A stretch of DNA of 64,000 bases, from the NCBI GenBank assembly GCA_900617105.1, contig UYFQ01000381.1, positions 1 to 64,000 of the forward strand. Reading direction: 5' to 3'. This document shows, piece by piece, positions 10,072-35,700 of this stretch. Numbering within the stretch: position 1 is the stretch's first letter; the number at the start of each line of letters is the position of its first letter. Source of the stretch: Hydrurus foetidus. Taxonomy: Eukaryota. A program made the translations under genes and the position numbers. Below the pieces are notes generated by a model that ran no database searches, was not told the DNA's origin, and saw nothing but the letters and a program-made list of their open reading frames with translations.

Positions 10072-10114
<43 letters not shown>

Positions 10115-10178
10115 ATAATCCGTACGTCCGTACGAAAGCATAAGTACACTGATTGTGTTCGTGCCATAAACTCAGATA

Positions 10179-12238
10179 ACGTAAAGCTCGGATAGCTTAG
10201 TACCGGAAGGCTCAGGAAATCGCGAAGATCCCCGTAGTGTAGCTTGGCACTCAGGAAATTTCGAAAACTGAGTTAAACGTTCCTGAGTCAACCGATAGAG
10301 AGATATGCTACTTATATTCTCCTTAGAACAGCAATTGAGCAAGATGATGAAGAAAGTGAGCACCTTTTTCCCGGTTGTCTCCAAGGAGATGCACGCCGCA
10401 AGATCAATCGTTTCAAATTTGATCGATGATGAGAGGGTAGCCGCTAGAAGAGAAGCGAAAGCGAAAGCTGATAAGGCAAAGAGCGATCGAATTCTTGAGG
10501 CAAACGCACGATACAACAAAATAAGGAAAAGGAAACGAGAAGAAGCAAAAGCGGCTGGTTTATTGGTTGATCCAGTCATGCATGCGATAGACAATATCTT
10601 TCTAGATGTCGCCGAGCCAGAGGTAGCCGACAAAAAGGTTAGAGTTCAGTTCTCGAGGCCCAAGAATTGGGCTGTGATTGCGGAATTTTACGGTCAGTGG
10701 GGGAAAAGCAAAACGTTGATGGTTTTTCAAGAAGAGTTTGAAGGTCGCAGTGATAGGTCTGCAGATCAGGCTTTAAGGCAGTGGCTTGTCGACTTCCGAT
10801 CCCAGAAGCTAATCATCGCTTCGAATAGGGCTCCAGCCTATGGGACTGCTATCGATAACTTGTTACTGGTAGAGACGAAGACCCGAATAGCAGCAGGGCT
10901 CCCTACGGATGATACTACGCTGCGACTGATTCTTGTCGGACTTCTTGAATCGCATGGCAAATCCGATCTACTGGAGGAAAATGGTGGCAAGAACTCGTTC
11001 CAACATGGATGGGCCTGCAGATTCTGGAAACGCCACAATCTCGTAAGCAGAGCCGTGACGACTAAGATGCGACTACTGCCAGGAAACTTTGCTGCTTTAG
11101 AGGAAAACTATATCACTGTCGCAGCACAAATGATACGTGACCACAACGTTCCTCCTGACTTAGTCTATGGGCAGGATGAAACGAACGCTCAATTTGTATC
11201 GAGACCAAACAGGACTCGAGCGGAAAGAGGTTCCAAGCGTGTACGGTTGCTCGGAGTTGGTTGTGAGAAACCTCAAATAACCGTAACCTTTACACTGAAG
11301 GAAACGGGAGAAGTCGTCGGACTACACCAACTAATCTTTGGCGGCAAGACAAAGAAGTGCGAACCGCAAAAGCCACCGCCTGCAAATACTTACTACGATC
11401 ACACCGAAAGTCACTGGCAGATGCCAGCTACGTACATTACCTACTTGGCTAAGGTGGTTGTACCGAACAAAAATACCACTATCGAACGCTTGAAAGTACC
11501 ACTCGACCAGAAAGCGATCGTCGTTCATGACCTTCACTATTCCCATAAGAACGCTGCAGTCCTCGACTTTATGAAGGAAAATAAGCTGCTTTCACTGTAC
11601 ATACCTGCAGCTTGTACAGACGTTATGCAGACTTGTGACACGGTTGCCAACAAGCCGTTCAAAGTCGGTCTCAAAGCGGCTTTCCGTGATTATCTCCACA
11701 CGGAGTACGGTAAGTGGATGATTGCAAATCCGGAAGAGGAGGTCCGAGGACAGTGGAACCCGAAGTTTACAATGGGAGCGCTTAAGGAACAGATCACAAG
11801 CTTTGTTTCGATTGGCATGGACACACTGAAGACACCAGAGATGAAGATTACGATAGCGGAAGCCTTCGGTAGAGACAGCCATTTCACAATCATTCGGAGT
11901 GCAGAACGTCAAGCGCTTGTAGCACATAATCAAGACGCAAATATGATTGATGAGGGTGAGGAGCCTGAAGTTCCAGGAGAGAATATTGCTGTTGACACTG
12001 ACCGCGCATTTGCTGCATATGCCGGCTCTGACTCAGATAACAGTGACTTGGAAGATTTCGACTTTGATTAGATTTGTCATAATGTCGTGATTGCATCTGA
12101 CTTTGTGAAAATGAAGTAATTTAAGATATTATACTTGATGAACATGGATCACACCAATCCTATATGCACAGCTCGGCACTCAGGAAAAAAAAGTCCAAGA
12201 TCCTGAGTTAAAAATCCTAAGCTATCCGAGCTTTACGT
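10179..12238 (+). mobile_element. Autonomous-looking pogo-family (Tc1/mariner-related) DNA transposon
   Basis: Perfect 22-bp TIRs ACGTAAAGCTCGGATAGCTTAG / CTAAGCTATCCGAGCTTTACGT; TA TSD at 10177-10178 and 12239-12240; subterminal CTCAGGA/TCCTGAG motifs. Confidence 0.96.
10305..12071 (+). CDS. pogo/CENP-B-like DDE_1 transposase (DD35D)
   Basis: Intact 588-aa ORF; FQHGWACRFWKRH HTH-like motif, GQDET, HDLHYSH and QTCDTVANKPFK catalytic motifs with 35 residues between the second and third Asp; acidic tail. Confidence 0.92.
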   Translation: MLLIFSLEQQLSKMMKKVSTFFPVVSKEMHAARSIVSNLIDDERVAARREAKAKADKAKSDRILEANARYNKIRKRKREEAKAAGLLVDPVMHAIDNIFLDVAEPEVADKKVRVQFSRPKNWAVIAEFYGQWGKSKTLMVFQEEFEGRSDRSADQALRQWLVDFRSQKLIIASNRAPAYGTAIDNLLLVETKTRIAAGLPTDDTTLRLILVGLLESHGKSDLLEENGGKNSFQHGWACRFWKRHNLVSRAVTTKMRLLPGNFAALEENYITVAAQMIRDHNVPPDLVYGQDETNAQFVSRPNRTRAERGSKRVRLLGVGCEKPQITVTFTLKETGEVVGLHQLIFGGKTKKCEPQKPPPANTYYDHTESHWQMPATYITYLAKVVVPNKNTTIERLKVPLDQKAIVVHDLHYSHKNAAVLDFMKENKLLSLYIPAACTDVMQTCDTVANKPFKVGLKAAFRDYLHTEYGKWMIANPEEEVRGQWNPKFTMGALKEQITSFVSIGMDTLKTPEMKITIAEAFGRDSHFTIIRSAERQALVAHNQDANMIDEGEEPEVPGENIAVDTDRAFAAYAGSDSDNSDLEDFDFD

Positions 12239-12442
12239 TATTATCTCCAACACCTTGCAACAACAACTTCTTGCAACAACAGTGGAGTGTGGAGTGCTGT
12301 ATTATTTATTTCTGTTGTAGCTGTAGCTCTAATACAGTAGAGAAGAAGACAGCTCAACCTGATACCTATTACTGCTGGGCCGTGCAGCAAAGGCAAGTGT
12401 TATTGAAGGATATTACTTGGGGTGATAAATTACCATTCTCCA

Positions 12443-13499
12443 ATGCCCTCCTCCACAACTCTCGCAATTGTGCTGCTTCTTGCTTCCGCAATAGCACCAT
12501 CGAGATGCGACCCAGAAATCCCCGAAAGTAAGCAGCACAGCACGAAGCAGTTGATCATCCACTCCGAAAAATTGGCCGAGCTCTACTATCAAAATCAACT
12601 CAGAGAGCGTCGGAAAAGTCTCAACTTCAATACATTCATTCACTTGAATCCAAACTATCCTTGCATGTATGGCGTTATACCACTTGGTGAGGATACTCCA
12701 TTTTCCGTTGTAGATGGCCACAAATATTCTTGCGGCATCACGCACATAAAATCAGATCCGATTGTCTACTCGTTTGGAAGCAATCAGCAACAGGATTTTG
12801 AAATGGCTATTCTCCGCTGGAGGCCAGATTCTCGTATCTGGACTCATGATATCTTAGAAAGAAATCTGCCAGTCCCAGAGAGCAGATTGCCCGGCATAAA
12901 TTACACCGCTACTGCGTTGGAGCCATCCAAACAGAACAAAGGGGACAAAAGATACAGGCTACTCAATGATTTCATGAAGGAACGAGGACACACTTACATC
13001 GACTTATTGAAGATAGACATCGAAATCGGGGAATTCGCATGGATTGCAAATGAGCCACTTGACACTTTTACCCGCATTGGTCAGCTTATGATAGAAGTTC
13101 ACCGACCTGGCGGCGGTAAGTGTGTGCTCGATTACGTTGTCACAGACTTCGATTTGTGCCATCAGTGCATTCTATCAAAAGTTTCCACTGCAATAGCTCT
13201 GTATGGTTATCTTGCCAATCAAAAACAAGTTCATCTTATCTTCTGCTTGAAATGCCATTTGACTTCCTTGAATGTGCTTATCTGACTTCTATGTTCATGG
13301 TCACAACGTAGCTGTCAAAGAAGACTACAAAAAGATAAAAGCGTTCGTCGAAACCTTGGAGGCAAGGAAATTTCGAATTTTCCATAGAGAACTAAACATA
13401 AATGATCGTGATCCACGCTGCATGGAGTTCTCGTTAATAACGCTGGACTGGACTAATTGGAACTCAGTGACCAAATTTGAACTAACTCCTGTGAAGTGA
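12443..13499 (+). CDS. Secreted or membrane methyltransferase-like protein (Methyltransf_22/METTL24-like); exons 12443-13115 and 13312-13499
   Basis: Signal peptide, DGHKYSCG, VYSFGSN..DFE, IDLLKIDIE, IGQLMIEVH; a GTAAG...TAG phase-1 intron joins the two ORFs. Confidence 0.8.
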
Positions 13500-13821
13500 T
13501 CAGAGAAGATACAAACGAATTTATCTGCCACAAATTGTATTCAGTGCTACACTATTCCTCCGCGGAATACATGGCATCGCTTACATTCCATATCTATCCG
13601 CAGACATTCGCTTTTCACCCAAGTTATCCTATTACAGTTTTTACCTCCTCAAGGTACCTAGGGAGATTTTTACATTTTACTACTCTCTCAATTGCAGCCA
13701 CGCTTATTTTTTCATTTCCACCTTTTGTTACCTGTAGATGCTAGGGCAACCATGTAAACCCTATAGCCATTGCATAATCAATCCATAGCATGATACTCCA
13801 CCATTCATATCCTATTACAAC

Positions 13822-14069
13822 TGTGGCATTCTGCCTTGTGCGAACATCCTGTTCTACCATTCCGCTACAAAAGCTCCTATTACAACTAGAGTACTCGATG
13901 AATGCCGTGGCGACCACGGGTCACGAGTTCGAAACCCGTCTTCACGATAGTCTAAAAACCAAAAACGTACAAACAAAGGCAAGAAAGAAGTGAGACCAAT
14001 GTGGCATTCTGCCTTGTGCGAATATCCTGTTCTACCATTCCGCTACACAACTAGAGTACTGATGAATGC
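13822..14069. repeat. Local direct duplication (about 70-85 bp; 13822-13906 and 14000-14069)
   Basis: TGTGGCATTCTGCCTTGTGCGAAYATCCTGTTCTACCATTCCGCTACA...CAACTAGAGTACT occurs twice. Confidence 0.8.
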
Positions 14070-14735
14070 TGAAGTACTTCCACGCGATCAGAAATGATAT
14101 TGGATTCTCTCACACTACACCTCTATGTATATACAGTCTAGTGAATCTTAGAGTAGTCACAATTGATTATCAATGCAAGCGCATCAGAAGCGACCGTGCG
14201 TGATTAAACAAAACTGAAAATTTTCTGTTCGATTGAGGCCCCACAAGTGATGTCGCTGATTGATGCTCAGATTGATGTATTACTACCATACGGAAGAAAG
14301 ATAGGCACATGGAAGAGCACAGAATCTCATCATATATGGAAGAACTGTAGTCACCTGGAGGAGGAGCACAGAATATCAGTACGTGTTCTGTAACACGCGG
14401 TTTCCGATGCAAAATAATAAAACCCGTTATACGGTTTTTCAGGTCACCATGCATAAGCTGCACTATACGCCTCAGGGCTATTAAAATACTGGACGACACG
14501 CACGGTACAATTAACAATTAAAATAGAAATCGCAGCAGTACGGTGGTAGATCGAGAGAGATGCAGATAAATTCTGGGGCAGCTAGCAGTGACAGGGGTTG
14601 CAGTAGGAGCCTCGGGCATTTGCACCAAAAATTTTGGAAGCTTCTGTAAATTTCGTCCTCCATCACATGTTCCACGGTGTCGCAATAACTTCAGCTACAG
14701 AACTCAGCAGCATTTAAAAACCACAAGCAACCACC

Positions 14736-15680
14736 ATGGTGGAAAAAAGGGCTTTGATTGATTGTAGCATTGTGTCTGAAGATGAAGCTAAGCATATCAG
14801 AGGCTTAACGATCAGAAGAGAGAGAGAAATAGTAGAGGCGGATCGTCACCGCAAATCCCAGATCAGAAACATAAATCAGCACTATGAGTTCGAGCTCAGC
14901 AGAGCAGAAGGTATTTCACCTGTAACCATTCCTTCAATAGAATTGAATCACAGTGCTACAATCTTTCTTTTTCAGCAGTGAGATTTAGTGACGACCTGCA
15001 GCTTTGGCGAAGTAGGCATAAACATGAGACTCTTCAGCAATCAATCTCTGAGGAAGAAAATTCCTCTGTGGCGCCCCAAGTTGTTCGAGTTGTACCTGCT
15101 GCGACTGCAAATCTTGTCCGCTATTCTGCTAGTGGTGATGTGACAGCACTACAGCTCGGAGATCAGTCCATCAGGTGTGCACAAGCTACAACCTGACTTA
15201 AAATCGACTGTAGAGATTGATCCTTATCTGAAATAAAAAAAATTCGTCATTGAAGTGAAGACATTTTCGAAGCCTCTCGGGATTTTATTAATGTCGCTAG
15301 GAATTTCTCTGATTCAGTTCCTGAGGTATGATTATCTTATTTTCTAATTGCTGTCTGAAAGCAAACTTCACTGAGCTTTCCCTTAACATATCCTGTAGGA
15401 AACAAACGTCGTAGTAATGGCAGATACATGCCAAATATCAATTGGCACAGAGACGTTTGTAGTAGGCGAAATGGTCAAATGCCTTTCGAGTCTATCTCAG
15501 GAAGTTTTTCATGGCATGATATCGTCTATAACGGAGATAAGCATACTGATCATATGTGGTAACTCCGCTAGAATTCTTCTGCCTGTAGGCCGAATAAGAG
15601 ACGGCAGAGTAACACTATCGAGCGATACAGAAATTATTCAAAGCGCTGAAATAGTGAAAAAGCACAGAAGTGTTCTATAA
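14736..15680 (+). CDS. Multi-exon gene, Sds3/BRMS1-like (Sin3-HDAC subunit) candidate
   Basis: Coiled coil RREREIVEA..INQHYEFELSRAE and a C-terminal exon (FHGMISSI..RILLPVGRIRDG) resembling SUDS3; introns 14911-14975 and about 15326-15399; middle exon structure uncertain. Confidence 0.45.
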
Positions 15681-16031
15681 TCCACTACTTCGGCTGTTAC
15701 TGGTCATTTTTAGCTGTCTGTGGGATGGCTTAAAAGTATGATTTTTTTGGACTACATAGTGGAGGCTCCGTCATGCAGTGTCGTAAATCTGTGGATTGAG
15801 TAATGGGTCATACGAACTCTACATTATATCTGATGGTCCTTACCGCTGCAATGTATTCGACAACCGTTATAGCGTCCGTCTGTGCAAATTATGCAACAAA
15901 TTCTGGTTAAATGAATGCGGGTTGACAACCCGTCACCGATACATTAATTACAGTCGAAAACTTTCGAAGAGGTGGACAGTTACATGGCTTGACTCGTCTT
16001 TGGATAACACAGATTGCGGGGCGCGGTGACG

Positions 16032-16463
16032 TTAATCTAGCGTATCAGCGACTGAGCATGTTCCTTCAACGATAGGGAATACCTCGTCTACCTGCTCCTC
16101 AATATTCTCGAAGACCAAAGTTTGTGAAGAATCCAATATGCCAATTTCATGGAGATGAGAGCTGGCGGTGCAGACAGATTCAGACTCTTCTTTAATTGAA
16201 ATGTTCCTGAATTTACCGTGCGGTACTTCCCTCAAAAGCTGCTCCTTGACCCCAGAGTAATTAATAACTGTAATAGGTCCACTGCAGTATACGTAAGTAG
16301 CAACAATCGAAGAGATAGCGGCCGCACAGAGCCAGTACCAAGTCCTACCCGAATCTGGCCGATGAACTTCGTTGTCTTCCGAAAGCTCCTTGGAATTTTT
16401 TCGTTCCGCACTTGATTGCATTTGAAGTTCGTGTTTGACTGGAAGAAACTGTGGGCTCTTCAA
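16032..16463 (-). CDS. Hypothetical single-TM protein (3' structure uncertain)
   Basis: 143-aa ORF with hydrophobic segment WYWLCAAAISSIVATYVY. Confidence 0.4.
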   Translation of the reverse strand: MKSPQFLPVKHELQMQSSAERKNSKELSEDNEVHRPDSGRTWYWLCAAAISSIVATYVYCSGPITVINYSGVKEQLLREVPHGKFRNISIKEESESVCTASSHLHEIGILDSSQTLVFENIEEQVDEVFPIVEGTCSVADTLD

Positions 16464-16653
16464 TATTCTACTGCACTGTCATCCAATGTCTTGTTGCTGT
16501 GCGTAGTTATCAGAGAAAATAATTATCAATTAAACTGCATCAATTGGGCCATGAAAATGAAAAGGCTTTACATCATGAAAAACGAAAGTGTGATGAAAGA
16601 TGGTCAAATATTTCGCGCACACACGAGCCGGAAGTGTACCGTACCATATAGCT

Positions 16654-16846
16654 CAAGGGTCGTGTTTAATGCATTTGTCGTTTTTAATCGGGTACCAGCC
16701 CCGCACACAACAACACACAGCATTTTTCATGCTGAGCGGTCCCCCTGGGGAATGTTTTATTTTTCAGTCATGAAAAATGCTGTGTGTTGTTGTGTGGGGG
16801 GCTGGTACCCGATTAAAAACGACAAATGCATTAAACACGACCCTTG
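16654..16846. mobile_element. MITE (about 193 bp) with about 80-bp TIRs
   Basis: Inverted arms 16650-16731 and 16769-16850 with one mismatch; ends CAAGGG...CCCTTG flanked by AGCT on both sides. Confidence 0.85.
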
Positions 16847-17036
16847 AGCTGTGTTCACTAAATGCCAACAATCCCGACAGAATTCAGGCAGGAATAATCA
16901 TGGAGTGTTCTCTCGGATACCTCGAACTGATTTATCAGGAGAATCCTCATCTCGCCACCAACCTGATCGATCACTTTATTTCATGTACTCATTTCTCTGA
17001 GTGATTTTTCGTGGAATACTCGACTTGAGAATAGTT

Positions 17037-18560
17037 TTAAGAATAGTTTTCAGACATTTTAAGAATAGTTTTCCTCGCATATTGTCCCAAGTATGTACTC
17101 TGGCTACAGTCATCAACTACTGAGGATCCCCAAAGAGATTTTATGGATGCCGATGTCAGTACCGTTTCTTCTATTAAAGCATCAGTTATGTTATGAGAGT
17201 CTCCGCCTCGCCTGATATGTTGGGATATAGCACTCGGAGGTGTCTTCCCATTTCCATCACTCCGACCAGATTCAGAAGTGCCATTACAACTAGTGCTCCT
17301 TGCCATACTCTTGCCGCTGACTGATGATGCGTGACTTATGAATCTACTATTTGCTGACGTTGGACTGGATCTGCTAAATACAGGGCCATGTTGAGGTCTG
17401 GTTCTCTTTCCTTTCAAGAGACGCAAATAGAGCTGCCTGTGATCCCTTTCCATGATACCACAGCTGATAGCGGCAACACTTTCTGAGCAATGTGATTCTA
17501 ATAAGATTGGTGCCTCTCTAAAACGTCTAACGATGCGATTATTGTACAATTTTTTCCAATGTAAAAGTGCAGGCTTTGTGATGAAATAAAAGGCCTTGAA
17601 TCTTTCTTGTTTTTCACGCTCAAGTACAATACTGATCCATGCTGCAATAGAGCGACTAAGCAACTTTTGCGATGTAGCAGATGCGATGCTTTCTGCACAA
17701 AAGCGCACTCTGATGGATCGATTCATAATAGCAAGCCTTCTCTTGCGAATCCGCAACATCTGTCTCCTTTGAATATTGGTAATTCTAAACCATATATGGA
17801 ATAATCGGCTTTGGTGAATTGTACGATACGTATGCTCTGAAAATTCCCTGGATTTCATCAGCAGTAACGATTCAATCAATTTGCCACAGCGCAGCTTCGC
17901 AGCTACCACAGTCTCACTCGTTTGGGGACTGAATAAGCTTTGGCATGTTGTGGTGCTTTTATTTCCTGAAGTAAGTGTCTTCTCTCTATCCATACCCCAG
18001 AAAACTTTGTCTGCAACAGTTGCCACTCTATTTCTCCTTATTTGAGACGAAAACACTGTTGAGTTCAACCTCGTCAAAGCACGAAAAATAGAGAAACGCT
18101 GCTCGAGTATTTTCGCCCATCCGTCAACCCATATTTCTAAATAAATCCTCACATAACGTCGAGCGCGGACTGTGGCCACCGCTTCAATCCGCCGGCGATT
18201 CTCAGCGACAAGTGGAATAAACTCTCTGGCCCAAACGTGGAAAATTCTTTCCACCAGGTGGCTATCAACTGCACTTATACGTTTTGGGTGGAGTTTGATG
18301 AAGACATTCACGTTTCGACGATGGTCCGAATTGCTCCAGGCATAATCTTTCCAGCGAAGTAAAGCTGAGTGTGCAGCATTATTTTGAAACTTGATATTTG
18401 ATCGCTTCAGCCTGGCCTTCTGTTTCAACTTATTTTGGAAGTAAGTCGTCCATATTCGGAAAGCTTTTGTACAGCGAATGTGAGAATCTAGATAGTGCTT
18501 CGTTGTGTCTTCCTCCATCCTCAAGGCTTGTTCAGATAGGCCAATGGCCTTTGACATCAA
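17037..18560 (-). CDS. Basic helical protein with Sfi1-like (centrin-binding) F/L-x-x-W repeats
   Basis: 507-aa ORF; KAFRIW, ALLRW, RIFHVW, RLFHIW, SIAAW and ALLHW motifs; Ser-rich tail. Family call is tentative. Confidence 0.5.
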   Translation of the reverse strand: MMSKAIGLSEQALRMEEDTTKHYLDSHIRCTKAFRIWTTYFQNKLKQKARLKRSNIKFQNNAAHSALLRWKDYAWSNSDHRRNVNVFIKLHPKRISAVDSHLVERIFHVWAREFIPLVAENRRRIEAVATVRARRYVRIYLEIWVDGWAKILEQRFSIFRALTRLNSTVFSSQIRRNRVATVADKVFWGMDREKTLTSGNKSTTTCQSLFSPQTSETVVAAKLRCGKLIESLLLMKSREFSEHTYRTIHQSRLFHIWFRITNIQRRQMLRIRKRRLAIMNRSIRVRFCAESIASATSQKLLSRSIAAWISIVLEREKQERFKAFYFITKPALLHWKKLYNNRIVRRFREAPILLESHCSESVAAISCGIMERDHRQLYLRLLKGKRTRPQHGPVFSRSSPTSANSRFISHASSVSGKSMARSTSCNGTSESGRSDGNGKTPPSAISQHIRRGGDSHNITDALIEETVLTSASIKSLWGSSVVDDCSQSTYLGQYARKTILKMSENYS

Positions 18561-18725
18561 CTCAGCTACAGAAGTTCTCTAAAGAAGTGGCATCATATCA
18601 CAATCTCCAAATTATTGTCTTTCAGGCTTCAGGGTGCAATCAGAAAATTTTGAATTTTTGAAATTTGAAAATCCTACGAGGTAGATCGGCGATCACATCG
18701 ATCGATCATCAAATAAATCAATAAT

Positions 18726-19610
18726 ATGGTAACACGCAGCCTTCGATCAAAAATCATTGATGCATCATCATTAGCCCTGTAGCACTCATCTTTGCGCGAG
18801 TGTCCCATGTGGCGTGGATGGCATAAGTTGCCAGGTGGTGACGCCACATTTGACGCATTAGCGAATATACCGAGTTCGTTTCCATCATCATCTGCTGCTG
18901 GTACAATTGACTTGATCGCCGCTGGGGGCGAAAACTTATTTGCCATTGTCGTAGATGATGTCCTCCAACTTTCTTCCTGTAAATCCACGATTGCTACCTC
19001 AGAATCGAAAGGATTTGAGCTGGCACTGCTAAACCAAGGGTCTGGACAGCAAGAGAAAGGAGTGACTTTGATCAGCATTCGTTCCGGTCAACGATGTATT
19101 ATTGATGACGTCGAGCTAGCGGAGTTGCTGTGGCCCCTGGTACAGGAGCATCTACCTCATCGAGATATTGTACCAGGAATGCGGTATAAAGGCTGGATAG
19201 CGACCGGAATTAACCCCAGATTCAGAGTGCTGAAGTATTCGGAAGGCGAACGTTTCGAGCTACATCAGGATGGCTCATACTATGTGCAGCCAGAAAGTCT
19301 GACAGGAGAAGTTACATGCGATCAGCAAAGTTTTGTTACATTCCAGCTTTACTTGAATGACGGCGGAGGCGTTGATTTTACGGGAGGAGCGACACGATTC
19401 ATACAACCCGCTGAACAACAGTATAGCAAAAACGTTACAATACCTTCGCCCAGTATCATCGATCGGCAGCAATTTGTAAAAGTACATGACGTTGTCCCTT
19501 TGGCTGGAAGGTTATTGTTATTTCAGCATAACTGTTGGCATGAAGGTGAAAGGGTGACGAGCGGTATTAAGTATGTGCTTAGGAGTGAAATCATGTTCTC
19601 AAAGATATGA
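18726..19610 (+). CDS. 2OG-Fe(II) oxygenase (prolyl-4-hydroxylase-like)
   Basis: NPRFRVLKY, HQDG (HxD), FQLYLND, GGATRF, HEGERVTSGIKYVLRSEIMF. Start is either ATG 18726 plus intron 18729-18782, or ATG 18807. Confidence 0.88.
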
Positions 19611-20115
19611 ATGTTGTGTGGTAGTATTGTGAAGGAGGCATGTCGGCTACGTAATTGCTCCCACAGCCAGCAAGCAACTGGCTGCATTTCTTGGAGTATG
19701 TCTGAAATGCAGCACCAATCCAGGATTTGATTGTTCTCATCAACAGTTGTGCGATTGATGCGTGATATTAGGAATTAAGCTCAACGGAATGCTGTCATAA
19801 CTTATTCTCCATGGCTTCTATAAAAAATCTCTCAATTGAAGTTTTGGCACAATCTCGCTTATTAAAACATTACAACCGGAAACTCAAGCGTTATCACGGA
19901 CAAATCGTCAGGACTGGAATTCGAGACGTCGCTGATGATGAGAGATATCCATCTATTGCTTGGGGGAAGATTCCAATCGATAATTCAAGAAACGGGTCTA
20001 CTTCGGCCATCCATTCGAGGCAGAGAGGCAAATTTGAGTATTGACTGGAGGCGCTTCTTTCGTTGTTTCTTTGCATGCAACTACGCTTCTATTCAAGGTG
20101 GTGGCGGAGATGAAT

Positions 20116-20553
20116 TCACGAAGATATTGCTGATGGATCCCCTCCAGGAACAAGGAGACAGATATTGGCGCCATTCAACAATATTTGATCAAGCTGCGTC
20201 TAGTTGACGATAATAAGTTCAAGAGATTGAGTGAGCTGCACATATGAAAAACACTCTTTGTACAGGTCTGGAGCGAAGTCTACCTCCTTTCTCCCTGTGG
20301 GTGTAATTTCATATTCGGTCACATCATCGAGGACCATGTTAACATACTCGTCGAAACCGCGAAGAGTTCCGATGACCTCTTTGTCCCCCTGTGCATATAA
20401 TACGGCAATCTTTGATTAAGAGGATAGACTCTCAGGACGACGTCGAATAGAATTCTTTCGTGGTGGCATTTCTTCAATGACCTTCAAAATTATCCATATT
20501 CGAGAACCTATGCACTTGTCAACGAGTGCTAGAGGCTGGATGCGTCCAGCCAT
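20116..20553 (-). CDS. LSM5: U6 snRNA-associated Sm-like protein LSm5; exons 20553-20482, 20388-20284 and 20199-20116
   Basis: Spliced product [86 protein letters not shown]; both introns GT-AG. Not recovered by the ORF track. Confidence 0.95.
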
Positions 20554-20754
20554 CGTTACAGTATATACTGTTTTTCGAAGTTGTTCACTGGAATGCTCAG
20601 TGAAGACTAATGTAGAACAGCTGAGAGCCGAGCTGAGACGATAGATATGTTGGAGATATGACGACTTCTCGCTGTACCTGGTCCCATATTTGGGACCGTT
20701 TACAGGTAATTATCATTTTTGAATAGATCTTGTCGAGATAAGTCTCGTAGTGGT

Positions 20755-21494
20755 CCCAGTGGTGTCAAGAACCAAGTCGGAATCAAAAACCTAGTTGGAT
20801 TTTGGTAGCTACGAGAACATTAATGAAAAACTTTCAAAAACCCTTTCTGCGAAATGACTCCGACTAAACAAACAGTGGCGCATCCATTTCTGAAGTCAGA
20901 AAATTTCAATACAATTTTTTTTGCTCTCATTTTCCCACAGTTTCAGAAGTGCTGAACTCAAATTCGATTACGAATGTGTTTTCGAAGAAAGTTAATGACA
21001 AAATCCAATCCACAATGATTGAATTAGTGTAGACCTATAAAGGTTTGACTTAAAACGGAAAAGTTCTTGAGATGCAATGACTTCAGTCATAAATTTGGGT
21101 GTTTCCCCACGAAATCAGTGAAAAATCACGTCTGAAAACCGTGAAAACACCCAAATTTATGACTGAAGTCATTGCATCTCAAGAACTTTTCCGTTTTAAG
21201 TCAAACCTTTATAGGTCTACACTAATTTAATCATTGTGGATTGGATTTTGTCATTAACTTTCTTCGAAAACACATTCGTAATCGAATTTGAGTTCAGCAC
21301 TTCTGAAACTGTGGGAAAATGAGAGCAAAAAAAATTGTATTGAAATTTTCTGACTTCAGAAATGGATGCGCCACTGTTTGTTTAGTCGGAGTCATTTCGC
21401 AGAAAGGGTTTTTGAAAGTTTTTCATTAATGTTCTCGTAGCTACCAAAATCCAACTAGGTTTTTGATTCCGACTTGGTTCTTGACACCACTGGG
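20755..21494. mobile_element. 740-bp foldback/MITE: two 350-bp inverted arms with a 40-bp spacer
   Basis: Arms 20755-21104 and 21145-21494, one mismatch seen; termini CCCAGTGG...CCACTGGG flanked by GT on each side. Confidence 0.9.
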
Positions 21495-21650
21495 GTCCTG
21501 AACCTCTTCATATCGTGTTATTTAGGGTGTACGAAGGAGAAAGAAAAAAAAAATCGTGGATCCCAGATCTGGAATTTAAGATCATTTTAGAAAAAGAAGT
21601 GATCTATCAGTGCACGATCAATTGACAGTTTGCTCACTTGAATAAGATTC

Positions 21651-22211
21651 TTACCGAGAGAAATTGTCGATGCCTTTTTCTGAGACGTAATGCTTCATCC
21701 TTCTATGGGAGCATGGGTAACCGTCTTCGACAGTCAGTGATTTGATGAAATCATTCAGATTTTCCAGATCTTCGTCAGTAATCTGAGTCCAAGATGAATG
21801 ACGTCAATCGAAATCCGAAGCAAAATACTTGGCGGAGGTATGCCTCACCTGGTTTCCGTTCAGACGCGCATGGTCAGTTCTTTTCGATTTTCGGTCTCTG
21901 CTCCTTTTGATGCGAGTCGTTCCGATTTTGAAGACTGCAGCCAGCATTCGCTTCGTAACTTTTTTCGTGGTGATCAAGGTGGACAAGAATCCATCAGCCA
22001 TGATTTTCTGGCCGTTGTCTCCATTGTTCAGTTTCGCAAAGAGTTCAATTGCTTCCTCCGCCTTTGCAGGACCACCCATGCAATTCTGGAAATCCCTCAG
22101 GTAATCTACCTCCTCAACATTCCTCGGATTATCTTGAATATTGATCAATCTACCTCTCTCGCCTTTGCAAACTTTGGGGCGGTAGTCCACTGGTTCTGAT
22201 GTGTTCGACAT
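21651..22211 (-). pseudogene. N-terminal transposase remnant of the 20660-22389 element
   Basis: ORF 22211-21804; a GTGAG...CAG intron joins ..LNGNQ to ITDEDLENLNDFIKSLTVEDGYPCSHRRMKHYV; no catalytic domain follows. Confidence 0.5.
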
Positions 22212-22720
22212 TTCAAGACAGGATGACGCTCAAATTTATGACACGCAGATGATTTCAAGTGCATATCCTGAGGTGACGACTGCTTACTACGCTTCATTTC
22301 ATCCAGCGTATCTTCCCGTTCAAAAAAAGAATTAATTGACCGAAATTCAAAAATTTTCTACGTGTAACTGGGTACAGCGAGAAGTCGTCATATCCGAGTT
22401 TATGGCACGAACACAATCAGTGTACTTATGCATTCGTACGGTCGTACGGATTATTATGTGTGTGTGTGTGTGTGTGCGTACGTGCGTGGCGACGATGGAT
22501 GGATCCGTGCATCGCCACTGAATACTTCAACTGTAGTGTTTGACTGAATGTTGTTGTTGCGTTGAAAGGGACTCGGGGACTTCAGCAGGGATGAAGCACA
22601 GTCAATTAACAAGTGATTACTGATTAAACCAAGCTTATTTCACGAGCCCTGACCGAGAGATCTTCAACAGCTGTACCGCGAGAGGCAGTACGTGACTGCG
22701 AAACCGAAGATCCGTCAACA

Positions 22721-22730
22721 TAATTGACTG
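22721..22730 (+). promoter_or_regulatory. Non-tRNA primer-binding site TAATTGACTG of Copia-2 (same sequence in Copia-1 at 9830-9821)
   Basis: Abuts the 5' LTR, lacks the TGG start, and is the exact reverse complement of LTR 22599-22608. Confidence 0.75.
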
Positions 22731-22745
22731 GCATAGGCATTCCCA

Positions 22746-25700
22746 ATGCCCCCTAAACGCGCTGTAGAAGCTCTCAAGAGTACAGAAGAGTGTACGCTTC
22801 AATACGGCAAACACAGCAACATAATCAAGTGGAGAGAACACATGCAGACGATAGTCACCGAACTATACGGAATCGTGGGGATGTTCTTCACCACTAACGA
22901 GAGATACGAACTTCCGAAAGCATCTCACAGGGATTACCCTTCAGATTCGTCATCGGAAAGTTCGGAATACGATACCGAAGAAGAGGAATCGGACGAGACA
23001 GACGCTGCAGTTCCTGCGAGGAGTGCAGCTGAAGTCGCAGCTAAAGCTGCGAGGGCCGCAGTGCGGCTGGCGAGCAGAGAAAGGAAACGCAAAGCATCGG
23101 AGAAATCGCGTGCGAAATTCAAAGAGGATGCGTTCATCCAGAGGAAGCGAGACCTCAAGACCCAACGCGAGAACGAACGTACGGTCTTCCCCATGATGTG
23201 GAAGCGTATGTCGCTTGTGTCACAGAGTAGGGTTAGGGAGGAAGAGGAGTACAAGACAGCATATCTCACATTGGACTGCGTTCTCCTGTGGACACTCATT
23301 CGAAGGACCCACCTGACTCATATGTTTGGTGCAGACGAGGCACTACAAGAATACAATCAGCACGAACAAGAGAATAAGTATTCGTCCATGAGACAAGGTG
23401 AGAGAGAACACCTAGTCACATTCAAGAACCGATTTGATGAACAGGTGGAGGCGAACATGTCCGTGGGGATCGCAGCGGTGTCCGACTCCAAACGTGCACT
23501 CGACTTCCTCGGCAAGCTAGACCCCGGAGGTTCAAAGTCATGATGGATGATATGAAGCATGACGCACTAAGGCGCAAACCGGATGCATTCCCCAGCACGC
23601 TAGCCTTAGCATTCCACATATCCAACCAATGGAACGAGGGAAACACTCCCGCACACACACCCGCGCCAGCACCGGCAGGGGTGAACGCAGCGTACGTTAC
23701 CGAAGAAGTACACGTCACCATGGCCAAGGATACCGAGAAGAAAGCAGGGAAAGCCGGAGGGGGAAGCAAGAAATCCTTGGAGGATGTTGAATGCTTCAAG
23801 TGCGAGAAGAAAGGTCACTACGCGAGGAACTGCCCTCTGAGAAAACCGTCAGTGGAAAAAGTCCACGTCACGGCGACGGAGTCGGATAGTGAATACGAAG
23901 GAGAGACTAGCGAATGGGGTATAGCGCTTGTCGCTACAGAAGAGATGTGCTGCTTTACGAAATTCGATGTACTACTAGACAATGAGGCGTCACTGAACAT
24001 ATTCAGTAACCTGGAGCTACTAACCGACGTGAGAAAGTCAGACAAGACTGTGAGAGTGAGTGGCATCGAGCAGGGTAGCGGCGTGTCGGTTGATCGAGAG
24101 GGAAACTTCGGAGAATTCGGAACGGTCTATTACAGCGGAGCAGCATCGGCGAATATCCTGTCGTTCGCATCACAGGTGGACTCGGGAGCCGAGATCAGAT
24201 ACGATCACGTGAGCGATTGCTTCACCCTGCAGCCGAAGGGGAGCACGAGGACATATCGATTCGGGAGGAAGCGTGTCGTCGGTAGTGAGGGAAGATTTTA
24301 CTCCTGTGATTGGAGAGAGGTTGATCACGATCGGGCATTAGTCACAACTGTAACCAAGAACCTGAAGTCGTTCACGAAACGCGAAGTGGAGCAGGCGAGA
24401 AGAGCTAGGGAGATGCTGGCGAGAATGGGATTCCCGACTGTAGAGCAAGCCATGTCGATCATCAACTGCGGGAGCAATTTCGATGTGACAGCAAGGGACT
24501 TTCAGATCGCCGACGCGATATGGGGGAAGGACATAGCCTCCCTGAAAGGAAAGACTACCAAGAGAGCTACTGCTATCGCCGACATAGCCATCAGCACAAA
24601 ACTCGTACAAAGGGATCAGGTGTTGTCGATCGACATTATGTATTTAGATAAATTAGCTATTCTAATCGGGGTGGCTACTCCACTGGGACTAACTATTGCA
24701 TATAGTCTAAACGCAGCTGATCTGAAGAAGCCAGCTAGGACAGCTGGGCAGGTGAAGATTGGAATCAACCATTTCATCGGCGTTCTCGCGGCGCAGAATT
24801 TCAGGACATCCGTGATCATGAGCGACGGAGAGGGAGCAGTGATCAGCCTTGTCGACGAGCTTGGGAAACTTGGAGTGGAGGTGGACATCAGCGGAGCCGG
24901 TGGACACGTCGCTAGGATCGAAAGAAAGATCAGGATTGTTAAAGAGAGAGTTCGCTGTCATGTAGCGTACCACCTTCCGTTCGTGTTGTCGACCGTGGGT
25001 ATCGCGATGCTCGTACTGTACTGTATATCTAGGCTGAACTATGAACCCACCGGTTTACGGGAACAGGGCCCCAGTCCGCGAGAGGCATTTATAGGCAGGA
25101 AACCAGACGGTAAGAGGGATTTTCGCTGTTCTTTCGGAGACTATGCACAGTGTACTGTCACTAATACCGACTCAGGCATGGAGAGCAGAACAGAAGACTG
25201 TGTGGTGATGCTCCCACTAGGGAACCGCACCGGGTCGGTGCGAATGTTATCTCTCAAAACAGGCAGACTAGTCAACCGAGATCAGTTCCGCATACTGCCG
25301 ATGCCGGAGTCAGTGATTAAGCGCCTTAACGAACTTGCGCTCGCTGATGGGAGAGCGAAAGGCAAGGGAGAGATATACGCTAAACCAACGTCATACGAGC
25401 AAGACAGCGGTGCAAAATCCGATCTCCCCGACACGATCAACAGCACTGTGAATGAAGGAGTCGACCCAGCGATACTTCCTCTCGACATCCATGACGACAC
25501 CGACCTCATTGACACGACAGGTGAGGTACAGTACGACAATGGGGGTGAACATGGACCGGGATGGCAACATGATGATGCAGCGGTGGACGATGTAGAACTG
25601 CATGGAGATATCGTTGAGTACCCACAGCCAGAACCACAGGAGCAGCCATACGGCTCCGACTACGAGATGGATAGTTTAGTCGACGACATGAATCGCATGC

Positions 25701-27595
25701 GTGCTGGACCGAGAGACTATGATGAAAAGGCTACTGAGAATATCGACTCGAGCGGAGTACCCATTGACTACACAGCGGGCGACAGCATAGACCATGACCA
25801 CAGAGGCCCCAAGAATGCACTAGACCGTGCGGAGAGATTGCTAGCAGCACCGAGAATTGTGCTTGAACGGGGAGTAGATAGACACGAGCTGATGGACTTC
25901 TTCAGAGTGAAGAGTGGGACAGCACTGCTAACCCGCAGCTACGAAGGGGACGGTACGGAGTGGGGTGATTACGTGTTCAACATATCAGTCAACGAGGCGC
26001 TGCGCACAAGGGGTGACGCGGCGGTGAGCGTTATACAGAAAGAGCTCCAGCAAATGATAGACAAGAAGGTGTGGGAACCAGTGTGCGTGAAGGGATTGTC
26101 GATGGAAGAGAAACATAGGATCATCAGGTCGAGTATGTTCCTGAAAGAGAAGTTCCTAGCGAGCGGAGATTTTGAGAAACTAAAAGCGCGACTTGTCGCA
26201 GGAGGTAACCAACAAGATCGTGACCTATATGATGACTTATCTGCACCCACAGTGGCCACCAGCTCGGTGTTCGCGCTACTGAGCATAGCGGGACATGAGG
26301 CGCGGAGGATCACGGTGATCGATATCAGCGGAGCGTTTTTGAACGCGGACATGACAACCGGACTCGCGGTGCACATGCGATTGGATAGGAATATGACGAG
26401 CATTATGACACGGCTGTGTCCGCGGTACTCGCAGTTCGTGGACCATAAGGGGTGTGTCGTGGTGAGGCTTGACAAAGCCCTGTATGGGTGTGTGGAGTCG
26501 GCAGCCCTGTGGTACGAAAACCTGAGAGGAGGACTGTCGGACATGGGATATATACCAAACGCGCACGACATGTGTGTCTTCAACAAGAGCGACGAATATG
26601 GCGTGCAGTGTACCATTGCTGTGCACGTCGATGACCTCATGATCACGAGTGTCAATGGGGCGATGATTGAAGAGGTGGCGAACGGATTGATAAAGAGGTA
26701 TGGCGATATCACCAGGAAGGATGGCCCTGTAGTGAACTATCTAGGTATGGTATTCGACCTTTCAATCGTAGGTGTTGCCAGAGTGTCAATGACCGGGTAT
26801 GTCGAGGACATGCTGAAGGAGAGCGGGACAATAGGGGGTGCAAGGACACCGGCCACAGAGGGGCTATTCGACACGAGGGATGATGCCGAACCAACAAGCG
26901 AAGAGGACCGAGTCAGGTTCCACCGCCTGGTGGCCAAGGGTCTGTACCTCGGGAAGCGTGCGAGGCCCGACTGTATGACCGCTTTGGCATTTCTCGCGAC
27001 CCGAGTGACGAGATGCACAGCGGACGACCTGTTGAAGCTGGAGCGGCTGCTCAAGTACATCAATGCGACGAAGGACAGAGGGATAGTATTCGCACCGGGG
27101 AAGCAGGGGATCAGTGTTAGCGTGCTGATAGATGCAGCGTACGGAGTACATCCGGACGGCAAGTCCCATACCGGAAGCTGTGTGGTGGTAGGAGAGCTGG
27201 GCGCGGTGCACTCGAAGTCAGCGAAGCAGCAAATTGTGACCAAGTCGAGCACGGAGGCGGAGCTGGTTGCCCTTTCTGATTCAACTAACCAAGCATTACA
27301 CATGAGACAATTTATCATAGGGCAAGGACATGCGTGCGGGCCGGTGACGGTGTACCAAGACAACATGTCTTGCATGGCTCTGATCGAGAGAGGGCGGTCA
27401 GCGGCGGAGCGCACGCGGCACATAGCGATCAAGTACTTCTGGCTCAAGGAGCGGGTGGACCAAGGCGAGGCGAGAGTGCGGCACCTGGGGACTAAACACA
27501 TGTATGCGAACCTACTGACCAAGCCGCTGCAGGGAGCACAGTTCAAGTCAGAGAGACAGGCCCTTACCGGATGGGACAAAGAGATAGTAGTTTAG
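22746..27595 (+). CDS. Copia-2 Gag-Pol polyprotein (single apparent 1-nt deletion in a C-run at about 23525)
   Basis: The 265-aa and 1351-aa ORFs join where Copia-1 reads LDPRRF; knuckle, PR, IN, RT (HVDD) and RNase H (ANLLTKPL) all present. Confidence 0.93.
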
Positions 27596-27662
27596 ACAAC
27601 GTTTAATTAAAGACTTATGCATGATGCGTGAATAGAGTTGATTGTGATGCGGCATAGGGGTG

Positions 27663-28001
27663 TGTTGGAGATATCCGAGTTTATGGCACGAACACAATCA
27701 GTGTACTTATGCATTCGTACGGTCGTACGGATTATTATGTGTGTGTGTGTGTGTGTGCGTACGTGCGTGGCGACGATGGATGGATCCGTGCATCGCCACT
27801 GAATACTTCAACTGTAGTGTTTGACTGAATGTTGTTGTTGCGTTGAAAGGGACTCGGGGACTTCAGCAGGGATGAAGCACAGTCAATTAACAAGTGATTA
27901 CTGATTAAACCAAGCTTATTTCACGAGCCCTGACCGAGAGATCTTCAACAGCTGTACCGCGAGAGGCAGTACGTGACTGCGAAACCGAAGATCCGTCAAC
28001 A
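27663..28001 (+). repeat. 3' LTR of Copia-2 (339 bp, contains (TG)10)
   Basis: TGTTG...CAACA, preceded by purine-rich GGCATAGGGGTG. Confidence 0.96.
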
Positions 28002-28091
28002 AGATACACACATTGGCGGAAATAATGAAGAAATAACGCGGTTCCGGTATAATATTCCGGTACACCCAACATTTTGACGTCATGTTACATG

Positions 28092-28348
28092 CGAAACATA
28101 CAAAAAACGAAACCTCAATCCTCGAATCCTCAAAACACGGGTTTCCAGAATTCCTCAAATCGGTGAAACCGAACCAGCCACTTTTTCGTAATTTTGAGTT
28201 TTGAGGTTTTCAAATTCCTCGTTTTGAAGCCCTCGGATCGAGGAATTCAAAACGAGGAATCCAAAAAAACACGAGGTCTTGGGTCCAAAAGGGCCGAGGA
28301 TTTTCGGAAAACCCGTGTTTTGAGGATTTTTTATTTTGTATGTTTCGA
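28092..28348. repeat. Degenerate inverted repeat, probable old MITE
   Basis: CGAAACATACAAAA...ATCCTCAAAACACGGGTTT versus AAACCCGTGTTTTGAGGAT...TTTTGTATGTTTCG. Confidence 0.55.
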
Positions 28349-29717
28349 CTGTAAGGTATTGAAAAACGAATTACCCACTGGAAAATACCCACACTAACTA
28401 TCACTAATCATGCATGACAGAGTGGGGTTTACGGCAAAGGGTTTCCGGATTCCGAACACAAATTATTATGCGCTTATTTCACTTGTGTTGGACTTAAATG
28501 TCTCTCGTGTTTCAAGCGTGTTGGGATTTCACGTGATAGCGCCATAAGGTAATTTTTTTTAATCTAATAATTTCGTAAGAACATCGTCAATATGGAAATA
28601 TCTCAAATATCTTCCGCAGATGCACGAGTGACAAAATATTTAGAGCTCAAGAAAAGTTTAAGATGAAGTAACAAGCACAGAATCATCTCTTCAGCGTTAC
28701 ATGCATATGGACATTTTGTTATCAACCGGTTGTTACGACAGTTATGTTTACAGATACTTATTGAATTTTTTTCAGGAACGCGAACCGCTCACTCAATTCG
28801 GCTCCATCTCCTGCTTTTTGAGGTTACTTAGAATGACAGGAATTGGTTTCAATATGCTGCTTGGGAGAACCCCGAAGTCGTCCAGTTGAGTCTATGTTAA
28901 AATTTCTTATGTTCTAGTGATACATGCGTGTCCATGTATTCTACTGTACAGTTGGAAGCTCCTGTAGTCGACAAAAGTCCCACGAGAAGAAGAAAAGTTG
29001 GTGTAGATAAAACCGGATAAATTCTTGGAATTACCGGATAAATACACTGTGGGCCCTCTGTTTTAGAAGCCCACAATGTACCCTTTAAATGGGACGTCTT
29101 GATTTTCCACCATACTACTCCCACGAGATTTGCCACCAGTCAAATTTGCCCTCTATTAACTTTTCCCAGAGGTTGAAATAAAGAATTTCAACCAAATGGA
29201 ATTCTTCCTTTACCATAAACGAACACATGTGTGTGGTTGGAAATCCTATTTTGAATGAAGTGAAGTGTGTGATACAGCTGGCGTTTCCCCATATACAATT
29301 GTCGAGTATAGGAGCTTCCTACTGTGCACATTACACGTGTGAACAGGAATAAAGGATCTCATCTTTATCCGGAAATCACAACGGTAGCCTATCACGCATC
29401 ACACACAGTGTCGTGTGTCGCAGTCGCAGTGGGACACAGCGAAGGTCTCCATCGAGCCTAATTCTTGCTATTTGGCTGAACTGAGGTATTACAAACTCTC
29501 ACAAGGCACTTTTTACCTTCCCTGTGAGGCTGTCTTGTATTTGGTGGGCGTCGTGAAGGCAACAATTGTTGCTTCGATTTCGAAGTGACAGTGTGTGACT
29601 TCGAATTTTCTTGAAGCGGCGAGGAGGAGTTTTCCGCAAAGCTTCCCCTTCGAGGAACATATCAACTGAACATCTTTCAGACCTCCAAGGACAGTGATTT
29701 TAAGAACAATTACTGAT

Positions 29718-32279: not shown

Positions 32280-32734
32280 GACCGACACAAGTTTGCAACC
32301 GAAGGCCTCACGCAGCGAATCTCGAAGCAGTGAAGCATCATAACGGTAAGATAGACAGCTTTTCAACAGTCTCTTCTGCAATAATTCTTCAGTTTCTTTT
32401 CTCAGCTGGTTCAAGTTGGTCACACTGAAATGGAATATATTTATCCAAAATCAGAATTTAATTATTACGATCAAATTCCGGTAAATCCGTTCAAAAAAAT
32501 CCGTACTTTCCGCGATTAAATTCTCGGCATGCTCGCTCAATTTTTGGGAGACTTCTTCAAAATAATTTCCATTAGAATCATCACCTGAATTGAGGTATAC
32601 GCATCAAATGTTTTTCATTTCCCATGAAAATCTGGCGATATCCATCAATTTTACATTCTCTACGTGCATGTGTAGTAGTCGACCACCAGTATGCATCTAA
32701 GACAGCCGTCGTTCCCTGTGGAAGGCAGTTTGCG

Positions 32735-35700
32735 ATGATGTTTCTTGCAGAGATTGCATTGGGTGAAGAAACTGGATTCGACGATGAAGACATTTCTGAA
32801 CCATCATCTCCTCAATCAGCCATAGAGGAAAATGGGGATGATGTAGGAGATCCATCTCAATCCAACCGACGGTTTCGTGGGACAGGAGCAATTTGGAGTG
32901 ACTGTTTGGACGAATTGGGAAACGATTTCATTAGTTACAGTAGTTTGGATGAAGTCCAAAAAGATGCTGCTGAGTCAAACTACTCTAAGATAGGTTCATC
33001 GTCAACTGATGTTCACACTTTTGTGTGTCGCATCAAGGGTTGCTATTACAAAAAGAAGTACCGGAGACTGGGAGATTCTGGATCGTTTGTGTCTTACTCT
33101 ACCGGCGACAATACTCATCCCACCTCTGAGATATTGAGTGATCAGCGTGGTCTATCGGGTGAACAAAAGCTGATCATTGAGCAAGCCTTTGCTGAGGATC
33201 GGAAATCTTCCCGAGATATTCTTGCTTTTTTTCGCTCCAAGAGGTCCCTATCCGATGAATCAATGAAGGCGTCTTTCCCACCGGATCCGGAGATCTCAAA
33301 ACTCAATAACTACATTCAAGCATTCAAGAAAAGGAAGTCGTCGAAGTACAATCCTACTCCTAACGACTTAGAGGAGTGGTGCATTGGACATGGTCCATCG
33401 ACGGTCAATGCAGAAGATGAAGGGACTTTTAACACTCCTTTTGTGCTTAATTACATGTTGGTGAGAATAAAAGATCTAACTTTATGATATGACTACATTA
33501 TACAACAATTCCTCAAATTCTGAACCTTTTTTCTTATTCACTAGGATACATCGGTAGCTCTGAAACCTCGTTTCATTGCTGTCATATCTAGCTATAGGCT
33601 GCTCTATCATGGTATTGATTCTTCATCACCTACAGCAGACGTTCGCAACTGTCTACAAGCTGATGGAACGCACAAAACAAACTCACATGGCTATCCGACC
33701 ATCATCGTTGGTAAATTCAGTAAAACTGTTGAGCTAATATAAATGCACTTTATATAAGTTGTACATTTTGTGTACAACTAATCTTAACATATCATATCAT
33801 TTCAGGTGTCTCAGATATGGCGAGAGTATTTCATCCATTGGCTATTTCAATGAGCACGAATGAGGACGCAATGATGTTCCAGTTTATAGGTAATATATAT
33901 TTTATTATAGTTATCTATATTTTTTCTAATTTTAATATTCTTATATTATTCAGGTGACTCTTTGGTTAAATACATTCCCAACTTCTTACCATCGAAATTA
34001 ATGAGCGATGCAGCTCCTGCTATCTTCAACGGCCTATCAATGGCATATCCTAACATTATAAATGGAAGGTGTTACTTTCATATGATGCAATGTATGAAAA
34101 ATCGCCATTACACGGACGAGAATTCAAAAAAGTTGTTCTTAAATGATTTAAGATCTTTATCAAAGTCTCATTGTCAGGAGCATTTTGATGTGTCAGTAAA
34201 TCTATTTTTAGACAAGTACCGTGATCATCAGGACGAACACATTAAGTTAGCGAGAGATTACCTTGAGAAGTTTTGGCTGCTGGACAGGAACAGAGGATGG
34301 CATTCTGGACTTGTACCTGGGACGGTAACATCGAATAATGGGCTTGAAGTTACAAATAGAGTATTCAAGAAAAATTTCAAAGGTTAGGCTTGATGAATAA
34401 GACAACTCATTTCATTATTATGTCCTAAACAATATTGTTGTAATAAATTGTTACTCTTAGGTGATTTAGTCAGCGGAACCGAATGTTTAGATTACACTTG
34501 TGTGTATCTACAAAATGAGTCAATATCAAGAACACGGGGGGATGTTAATTATAAAGAATACTCAATGTCAGCTAAAAAAGCTAAAGATATAATGAGGCTA
34601 GCGAAGTCGTTGGTAGAGACACACAATCTAACAAAAATACGTCCGTCAACAGTAAGGCGACAATATGTAATAATGAGAGATAATGAGATATTGAGCGATG
34701 ACAGCGCAGTTGGAATTATTAATTGTAGCAATTACAACAGATTTAAGAGTTGGGATGAGAGGGAGAGGTATCAGAAAAATGTAAGAATTATTAGTCCAGT
34801 TTCAGATGACAGGAAAGCAAATAGTCATAGCGGATATAGATGCACATGTCAAACTTATATGGATGAATACGAATGTGAACATGCGATGGCAATTTCTATT
34901 GCGAAAAATGAATTATCACAATCAATTATCATGCATATGCCGTTGGGGTTAAAGAGAGGTCCTGGACGACCAGTCAAAGCAGTGAAAGGAGCTCTAAATC
35001 CACAGATTAAAGTAAACAAAAAAAAATCAAAAATTGAGCTTTCAGATACCACAACTACACAAGGTAATGCTTTACAGTTATCATTTACTTGTTTTCCTAA
35101 ATTAACTCTGAAAAATTTACCATACATTTCATTAGGAAACGGTGATGCAATCACCATCGATTCGGAAAAGAGGTTGATATTAAAAGGTTTTGTATGGCAT
35201 AATATGTCATGTTCGTACGATGCATTATTCACAACGTTATGGATAATATATTTCTTAGGTCGAGACGAAATTAGAAAAACTTTCGATTCTACCCTACCTC
35301 TTATGGCAAAAATGTACAGAGAAATGATAGGCAATACATTGACATTCAAAGAGGCCAATGATCGAATTAGGGATACTTACTTTATTTCTACTCCAATCGT
35401 TGATTTCCGCCGAGGTGTGTTTCAAGGCGTATCGGACATAACCAGCCATCTGCTTCTGCAATGCGTCTTATCTGTTGACGAAAATGAGAAAGATTGTTTT
35501 ACATTTCAGTACAATTGCATTAAAAAATGTACAAATACATTGTGCATTGACATCTCGAAAGAAAGAACATCTGAATGTGCGTTACGTTGTTTATTTTTCG
35601 GTGTTGATGTTGATACGACAAAAACTGTGACACAAATGATTATCCAGTATTTTTCATTAGAAAACAGAAATTTCCGTTGTCATGTATGCAGTCATCAGAT

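Follow-up and report, generated by a model that had tools for sequence, protein, structure and literature searches.

The target motifs of TIR elements are palindromic and mostly AT-rich, and the pogo TSD is TA (excerpt of PMC3276498). Sola TSDs are 4 bp long (excerpt of PMC10741241), and Sola1 prefers AWWT or AWDT with a 4-bp TSD, its listed TIRs starting with G (excerpt of PMC3845634). In carrot, 292 of 18,518 sites were each shared exactly by different Stowaway families, with more than 63% near or in genes (excerpt of PMC6881990), and Mu favours DNA 5' of the ATG and the TSS (excerpt of PMC2774946). Plant LTRs are seldom struck by nested LTR elements (excerpt of PMC6911290). A literature search, which left most subscription papers outside it, turned up no published case of an LTR end being targeted by DNA transposons.

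The DNA analysed here is a eukaryotic stretch of 64,000 nucleotides (the window), which holds spliceosomal introns, Copia and Gypsy elements, and an 18-bp satellite from about 36.3 kb. The satellite forms a large 18/22-bp array (36300-53600 and 59200-64000, unit GGATGCATGAGTGAGTAG) and is broken up by a chromodomain Gypsy with matching LTRs at about 53590-59300. A second chromodomain Gypsy, at 1-4439, is more AT-rich and 70-73% alike to the satellite Gypsy over parts of pol. At 32594-36037, intron-containing ORFs are followed by a protease-like ORF; no Pfam match was obtained for this segment, whose ORFs presumably resemble a MULE/SWIM-type transposase. The elements of the two Copia loci are as follows.

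20648-28001, plus strand: Copia-2 LTR retrotransposon, TSD AGATA (20643-20647 and 28002-28006), one gag/pol frame break near 23500
27663-28001, plus strand: Copia-2 3' LTR, site empty, reading TGTTGGAGATATCCGAG
20660-22389, minus strand: non-autonomous TIR transposon (the second insert) with 19-bp perfect TIRs, G-first, and ATAT flanks at 20656-20659 and 22390-22393
12252-4533, minus strand: Copia-1 LTR retrotransposon, TSD CAAGG (12253-12257 and 4528-4532), gag-pol split over several ORFs
12239-12252, minus strand: outer tip of the Copia-1 5' LTR, TGTTGGAGATAA plus the left TA copy
4533-4890, minus strand: Copia-1 3' LTR, site empty, reading TGTTGGAGATAATATCTGAG
10179-12238, plus strand: pogo-type DNA transposon of 2060 bp with 22-bp perfect TIRs and a TA duplication

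Both Copias have the Ty1/Copia features of TG...CA LTRs, a 5-bp TSD and an RVT_2 reverse transcriptase; the Pfam domains of Copia-1 are RVT_2 and zf-CCHC. In both, the 5' LTR is followed by TAATTGACTGGC (22721-22740 and 9830-9811) instead of a clear TGG tRNA primer-binding site. The LTRs also contain a variable (TG)n array. The gag of Copia-1 carries a second TGTTGGAGA on the opposite strand (9748-9756), so that 9 bp of the LTR tip recur there in inverted orientation. TpA hypermutation was considered as the source of TA scarcity and rejected, the observed/expected TA ratio being 0.73 and 0.77 in the Copias versus 0.71 in the host island.

The Copia-2 5' LTR reads TGTTGGAG-ATAT-(20660-22389)-ATAT-CCGAG, and the Copia-1 5' LTR reads TGTTGGAGATAA-TA-(12238-10179, 2060 bp)-TA-TCTGAG. 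The break in both 5' LTRs thus falls near position 10-14, and neither 3' LTR has an insert. The first-pass annotation had described two unrelated DNA transposons at a homologous 5' LTR site with both 3' LTRs empty, and junctions, TIRs and proteins all agree with that description. The Copia-2 LTRs, which it had called otherwise identical, show 0 differences in 339 bp when the insert is left out. The Copia-1 LTRs differ at 7 of 358 aligned sites, and the 3' LTRs of Copia-1 and Copia-2 differ from each other at 34 of 339 sites. The proposal that both inserts occupy the same TA needs to be narrowed: the pogo duplication is TA, but that in Copia-2 can be read as TA or ATAT. Relative to Copia-2, moreover, both Copia-1 LTRs have 3 extra bases at the insertion site. 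Because the bases are in both LTRs, their gain predates the insertion of Copia-1, and because of the gain the two sites are homologous only if anchored on the right flank.

For comparison with other samples, contigs of the data sets X1-X4 were compared with the window over 9750-22800. Of the sampled words, a share of 0.75-0.78 was present in X1 and X2, public DNA data sets under one organism label, and a share of 0.44-0.49 in four metagenomes from sediment or biofilm. Throughout, summed contig depth is used as a rough rank rather than a copy number. These contigs bear on whether the junctions are an assembly artefact. None of the X1-X4 contigs listed bridges the Copia-2 junction: the X1 and X2 flank contigs end at 20628 on the Copia-2 side, and one X4 contig diverges from the window at 20643 with 41 other letters, like a Copia-free allele. 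That divergence, however, fits a young and polymorphic Copia-2. Both inserts are bounded by exact duplications and perfect TIRs, and a gapless X1 contig of single-copy depth (12212-13555) runs from the host flank through the LTR tip into 27 bases of the pogo TIR, fewer than the 31 bases by which we define a bridge. An artefact is therefore extremely improbable. Scattered substitutions separate X1 from the window, and two nearby small elements are missing in X1; the pogo allele thus appears to be shared between two strains.

The 2060-bp element in Copia-1 is, by its sequence, a pogo. Its 22-bp TIRs begin ACGTAAAG, its termini start ACGT, and the duplicated TA lies at 12239-12240 and 10177-10178. 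The ORF at 10344-12071 is open and predicts a 575-aa transposase with a DD35D triad (D278/D396/D432); D278 is kept in 14 of 14 aligned proteins, D396 and D432 in 12 of 14 (the two other rows being gapped), and the spacing is 35. In pogo elements the DDD triad is spaced by about 30-35. The ORF matches Pfam DDE_1 with an E value of 0.0037 and 17.3 bits, below the curated cut-off of 22, and DDE_1 is carried by 40 of 63 homologues. The element therefore shares TA duplication, short TIRs and DD35D with the Tc1/mariner-pogo group, and differs from it by the sub-cut-off DDE_1 score of its own ORF and by its ACGT-first termini. Alignment confirmed 0 of 44 pattern matches in viral contigs and 0 of 44 in prokaryote contigs. 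The summed contig depth of pogo is 400-1000, which includes a short, internally deleted derivative (joint 10371>12134) seen in X1, X2 and X3 at a depth above that of the full element.

The insert in Copia-2 was less simple, and two further features lie within it.

21654-22211, minus strand: 5' fragment of a transposase gene, catalytic core absent
20756-21493, no strand assigned: nested high-copy foldback MITE of 738 bp with arms of about 350 bp and the 4-bp duplication GGTC

The size of 1.73 kb first given for this insert stands, but it is not one element: the 738 bp of the MITE are a separate, nested insertion, and about 1 kb is left once they are removed. The MITE-free form is present in X3 and X4 contigs (joint 20751>21494); the 93-base side of that joint fits either side, so the joint does not fix the duplication length. 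The MITE has a summed depth of about 30,000, compared with 280-450 in the remainder of the insert and about 115 in single-copy DNA. X1 and X2 have another deletion form of the insert (joint 21595>22134), and an X3 contig goes on beyond 21591 with different sequence, which is perhaps the transposase core that the window copy lacks.

The TIR of this insert is 19 bp long and begins GACGACTT. Its junctions, GGAG ATAT (G...C) ATAT CCGAG, can from one copy be read equally validly as an ATAT duplication or, with the bounds moved to 20659-22390 and an element of the form T...A, as a TA duplication. The protein family favours ATAT. A 66-nt GT-AG intron is predicted in the transposase fragment (21848-21783), where a 22-residue gap separates intronless relatives from it. 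Pfam assigned no family to the ORF, and none convincingly to 10 near relatives. Among its 24 relatives, the longer ones run into an acidic-triad-like core with EDYGGN...MDNCVGQNKS...GHSHMxPD, which we take to be the Sola core, and DUF7869 scored above cut-off in 3 of 5 relatives scanned. A word-based search for longer homologues gave 0 of 181, and the family profile had no significant match among PDB sequences. The predicted core structure was of low confidence (pTM 0.29), and a fold search with it gave no match; Sola-like alignment confirmed 0 of 212 pattern matches in metagenome contigs and 0 of 41 in viral contigs. The 4-bp TSD of Sola and the AWWT preference of Sola1 agree with the ATAT reading. 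The second insert is thus probably Sola-type. With Sola (Sola1-like) elements it would share the AWWT-type 4-bp duplication reading, the G-first TIRs (on the ATAT reading only) and, through its relatives, the core and DUF7869, the window copy itself being coreless; the likeness is to descriptions and motifs of Sola elements. Beyond its place in this locus, the insert flags an intron-bearing DUF7869 transposase family whose N-terminal half has no Pfam match.

With different TIRs and proteins of different families, the two inserts are unrelated. Their sites probably overlap on an AT palindrome, with no TA chemistry in common. In each LTR, ATAT is found a single time, at the insertion site; in the Copia-2 3' LTR it lies at position 9-12, and it is one of the 3 AWWT sites of the Copia-2 LTR. 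For one insert per LTR placed uniformly, the chance of the same site is about 1/3 (AWWT) x 1/22 (TA) = 0.015. The first 100 bp of the LTR contain 1 AWWT, 5-6 WTAW and 9 TA sites, and with placement in those 100 bp only (1/1 for AWWT, 1/6 for WTAW or 1/9 for TA) the chance is about 0.1-0.2. The probability that two of two inserts fall in 5' LTRs only is 0.25, and two of two is weak evidence for a 5' pattern.

The shared site might then have arisen by chance where polymorphic elements are dense, and have caught the eye through the reading of very many windows. Indeed, the interval 10179-22389 contains five or more TIR or MITE-like insertions, three of which are missing in contigs of other samples (joints 13816>14047, 16649>16847 and 20751>21494). 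But 1-36000 had 2024 TA and 958 AWWT sites on offer, both inserting families are at low depth, and the same-site probability given LTR inserts is the 0.015 above; we consider coincidence to be distinctly unlikely. Two of the missing elements have features of their own. The first (16654-16846) is a 193-bp TIR element with AGCT flanks and high depth, missing in X1 and X2 contigs. The other (13817-14047) is 230 bp long, has no TIRs, contains internal direct repeats and a tRNA-like box, and is likewise of high depth and missing in X1 and X2; it is possibly a SINE.

The other samples also speak to how often LTR tips are filled. At 10178 and 22390, every one of the best-supported loose ends in X1, X2 and X3 is an empty tip. 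Two have non-PPT flanks, from which it follows that other 5' or solo tips are empty; this statement covers the loose ends listed and is compatible with a minority of filled tips. The LTR is a conserved multicopy sequence with a depth hundreds of times that of single-copy DNA (summed depth 35,000-48,000 versus about 115), and the majority of LTR tips cannot be filled by the pogo or second-insert families. Searches with LTR patterns in metagenome, viral and prokaryote contigs gave 0 loci each. A conserved and highly repeated LTR has the conditions named for target choice by Dada (excerpt of PMC3706591), and one or both families might have become specialised on the end of the Copia LTR, much as Dada is on snRNA and tRNA genes. 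Such a dedicated system would, however, require two unrelated superfamilies to converge on one site, the depths imply that most tips are empty, and Pfam showed no targeting domain in the pogo ORF. We hold it to be very improbable.

A related explanation makes the LTR tip an intrinsic hotspot wherever it lies, either as a bendable AT palindrome or as a mimic of the pogo TIR that draws the transposase, with the 3 extra bases of Copia-1 as the footprint of a third insert, since excised. The Copia-2-type tip does match the pogo TIR in 14 of 16 columns, for a score of 22. Among 2312 control TA windows, 3 (one locus) scored as high, as did 0.2% of 5000 shuffled TIRs. The sequence GA-TA-A-TA-TC allows two readings, TA+A+TA or an ATAT duplication that is nearly complete, and AGATA-A-TATCT is an 11-bp palindrome. 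The LTR that pogo actually entered, however, scores 16, a value reached by 9.6% of controls, and the TIR of the second insert scores 8 against the tip, under all controls. The comparison was made post hoc with two TIRs, the insertion meets the inner edge of the mimic rather than its cleavage end, and ATA slippage accounts equally well for the extra bases. With the best-supported public contigs at both junctions having empty tips, an intrinsic hotspot is unlikely. In its fullest form, the outer ATAT would be a landing pad reused by two superfamilies, by pogo through the TIR mimic and by the Sola-type element through the palindrome, with the Copia-1 gain as the scar of a third visit. That combination is very doubtful; if true, it would amount to DNA transposons targeting the end of an LTR retrotransposon. 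LTR ends would then join the few natural targets known for cut-and-paste transposons, and targeting by TIR mimicry would be a readily testable mechanism.

The surroundings of the two tips suggest a plainer explanation. Each Copia has its 5' end beside the start of a host gene and an older element beyond its far TSD.

20284-20553, minus strand: host LSm5 gene, exon 1 at 20553-20482 and exon 2 at about 20385-20284
28086-28353, no strand assigned: older TA-flanked inverted-repeat element, one end CAGT, beyond the far TSD of Copia-2
12443-13285, plus strand: first ORF of a host methyltransferase-like gene (Methyltransf_22, E 3.9e-6)
4167-4439, plus strand: Gypsy LTR, beyond the far TSD of Copia-1

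The LSm5 identity is given by a best match of E 1.9e-12, with 5 of 5 matches being LSm5. Its ATG (20553, minus strand) is head-to-head with Copia-2, 95 bp from the tip and 103 bp from the insertion; the methyltransferase-like ATG (12443) is head-to-head with Copia-1, 191 bp from the tip and 203 bp from the pogo TA. In the presumed pre-Copia alleles, the inverted-repeat element would lie 175 bp from the LSm5 ATG and the Gypsy LTR 279 bp from the methyltransferase ATG. Counting older elements, Copias and inserts, there were at least three insertions within 300 bp of each gene start. The 3' LTR tips are more than 5 kb from these promoters.

We therefore most likely have no new targeting system here but a promoter-side insertion hotspot of an ordinary kind. 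In particular, we lean, by a little more than even chances, to the explanation that open promoter-side DNA, a preference for AT palindromes, and selection that spares the host promoter together steer inserts to the first ATAT of the LTR. Under this explanation the older elements would have settled first, 175-280 bp upstream of each gene, and each Copia would then have inserted 5'-end-first just outside the core promoter. The outer tip of the Copia would so become the closest dispensable DNA within a presumably accessible promoter zone, while selection would remove inserts in the 5' UTR or core promoter, above all at LSm5. The TA-specific pogo and the probably AWWT-specific Sola-type element would each take the overlapping AT-rich palindrome at LTR position 9-14. 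On the pogo side, the 191-bp host gap offers 16 TA sites that stayed unused, which speaks against the explanation unless selection is invoked. The 3' tips would be empty because of their distance from the promoters, with no need for reverse transcription as a reason. The gene context of both tips is suggestive, with n=2 and a prior of about 0.25 for finding 5' ends at both, because whatever element borders this gene island will touch a gene. The cited preference for promoters concerns Mu and Stowaway and not the two inserting families, and the promoter-side hotspot leaves the likeness of the pogo TIR to the LTR tip and the 3 extra bases of Copia-1 unexplained.

Of the causes proposed for a hotspot in the first-pass annotation, exposed DNA beside a host promoter is directly supported by the context, with host start codons 95 and 191 bp from the tips, but an intrinsic property of the tip, protein tethering and an LTR-parasitising system are not borne out, the best-supported public loose ends being empty tips. 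The annotation had also proposed that the outer 5'-U3 is a low-cost haven. The outer 5'-U3 is not copied into progeny, which is correct retroelement biology. The argument nonetheless does not account for the LTR in which an insertion persists once a copy is in the genome, because retention there would depend on host-level selection at the locus.

The promoter-side hotspot would make this locus a clean natural example of openness, target preference and selection stacking transposons at gene 5' ends, a result that is useful though expected. On the same explanation, the DNA upstream of LSm5, an essential splicing gene, would have been replaced twice recently.

In comparison with described systems, the locus resembles Dada (excerpt of PMC3706591) and Pokey in rDNA (excerpt of PMC4912750) in having insertions in a conserved multicopy sequence, but in those systems one family goes repeatedly to one target, whereas here a single insertion per family was observed. 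Maize Mu (excerpt of PMC2774946) belongs to another superfamily, and here the landing DNA is a retrotransposon tip whose openness is presumed; the likeness is that cut-and-paste inserts gather just 5' of the ATG or TSS, with a preference for open chromatin. Finally, the carrot Stowaway case (excerpt of PMC6881990) concerns one orthologous locus across plants and one superfamily, whereas here a paralogous site in two LTR copies received elements of two superfamilies. As in carrot, however, different TA-type elements lie at exactly the same position and mostly near genes, a pattern that the authors of that work read as hotspots.
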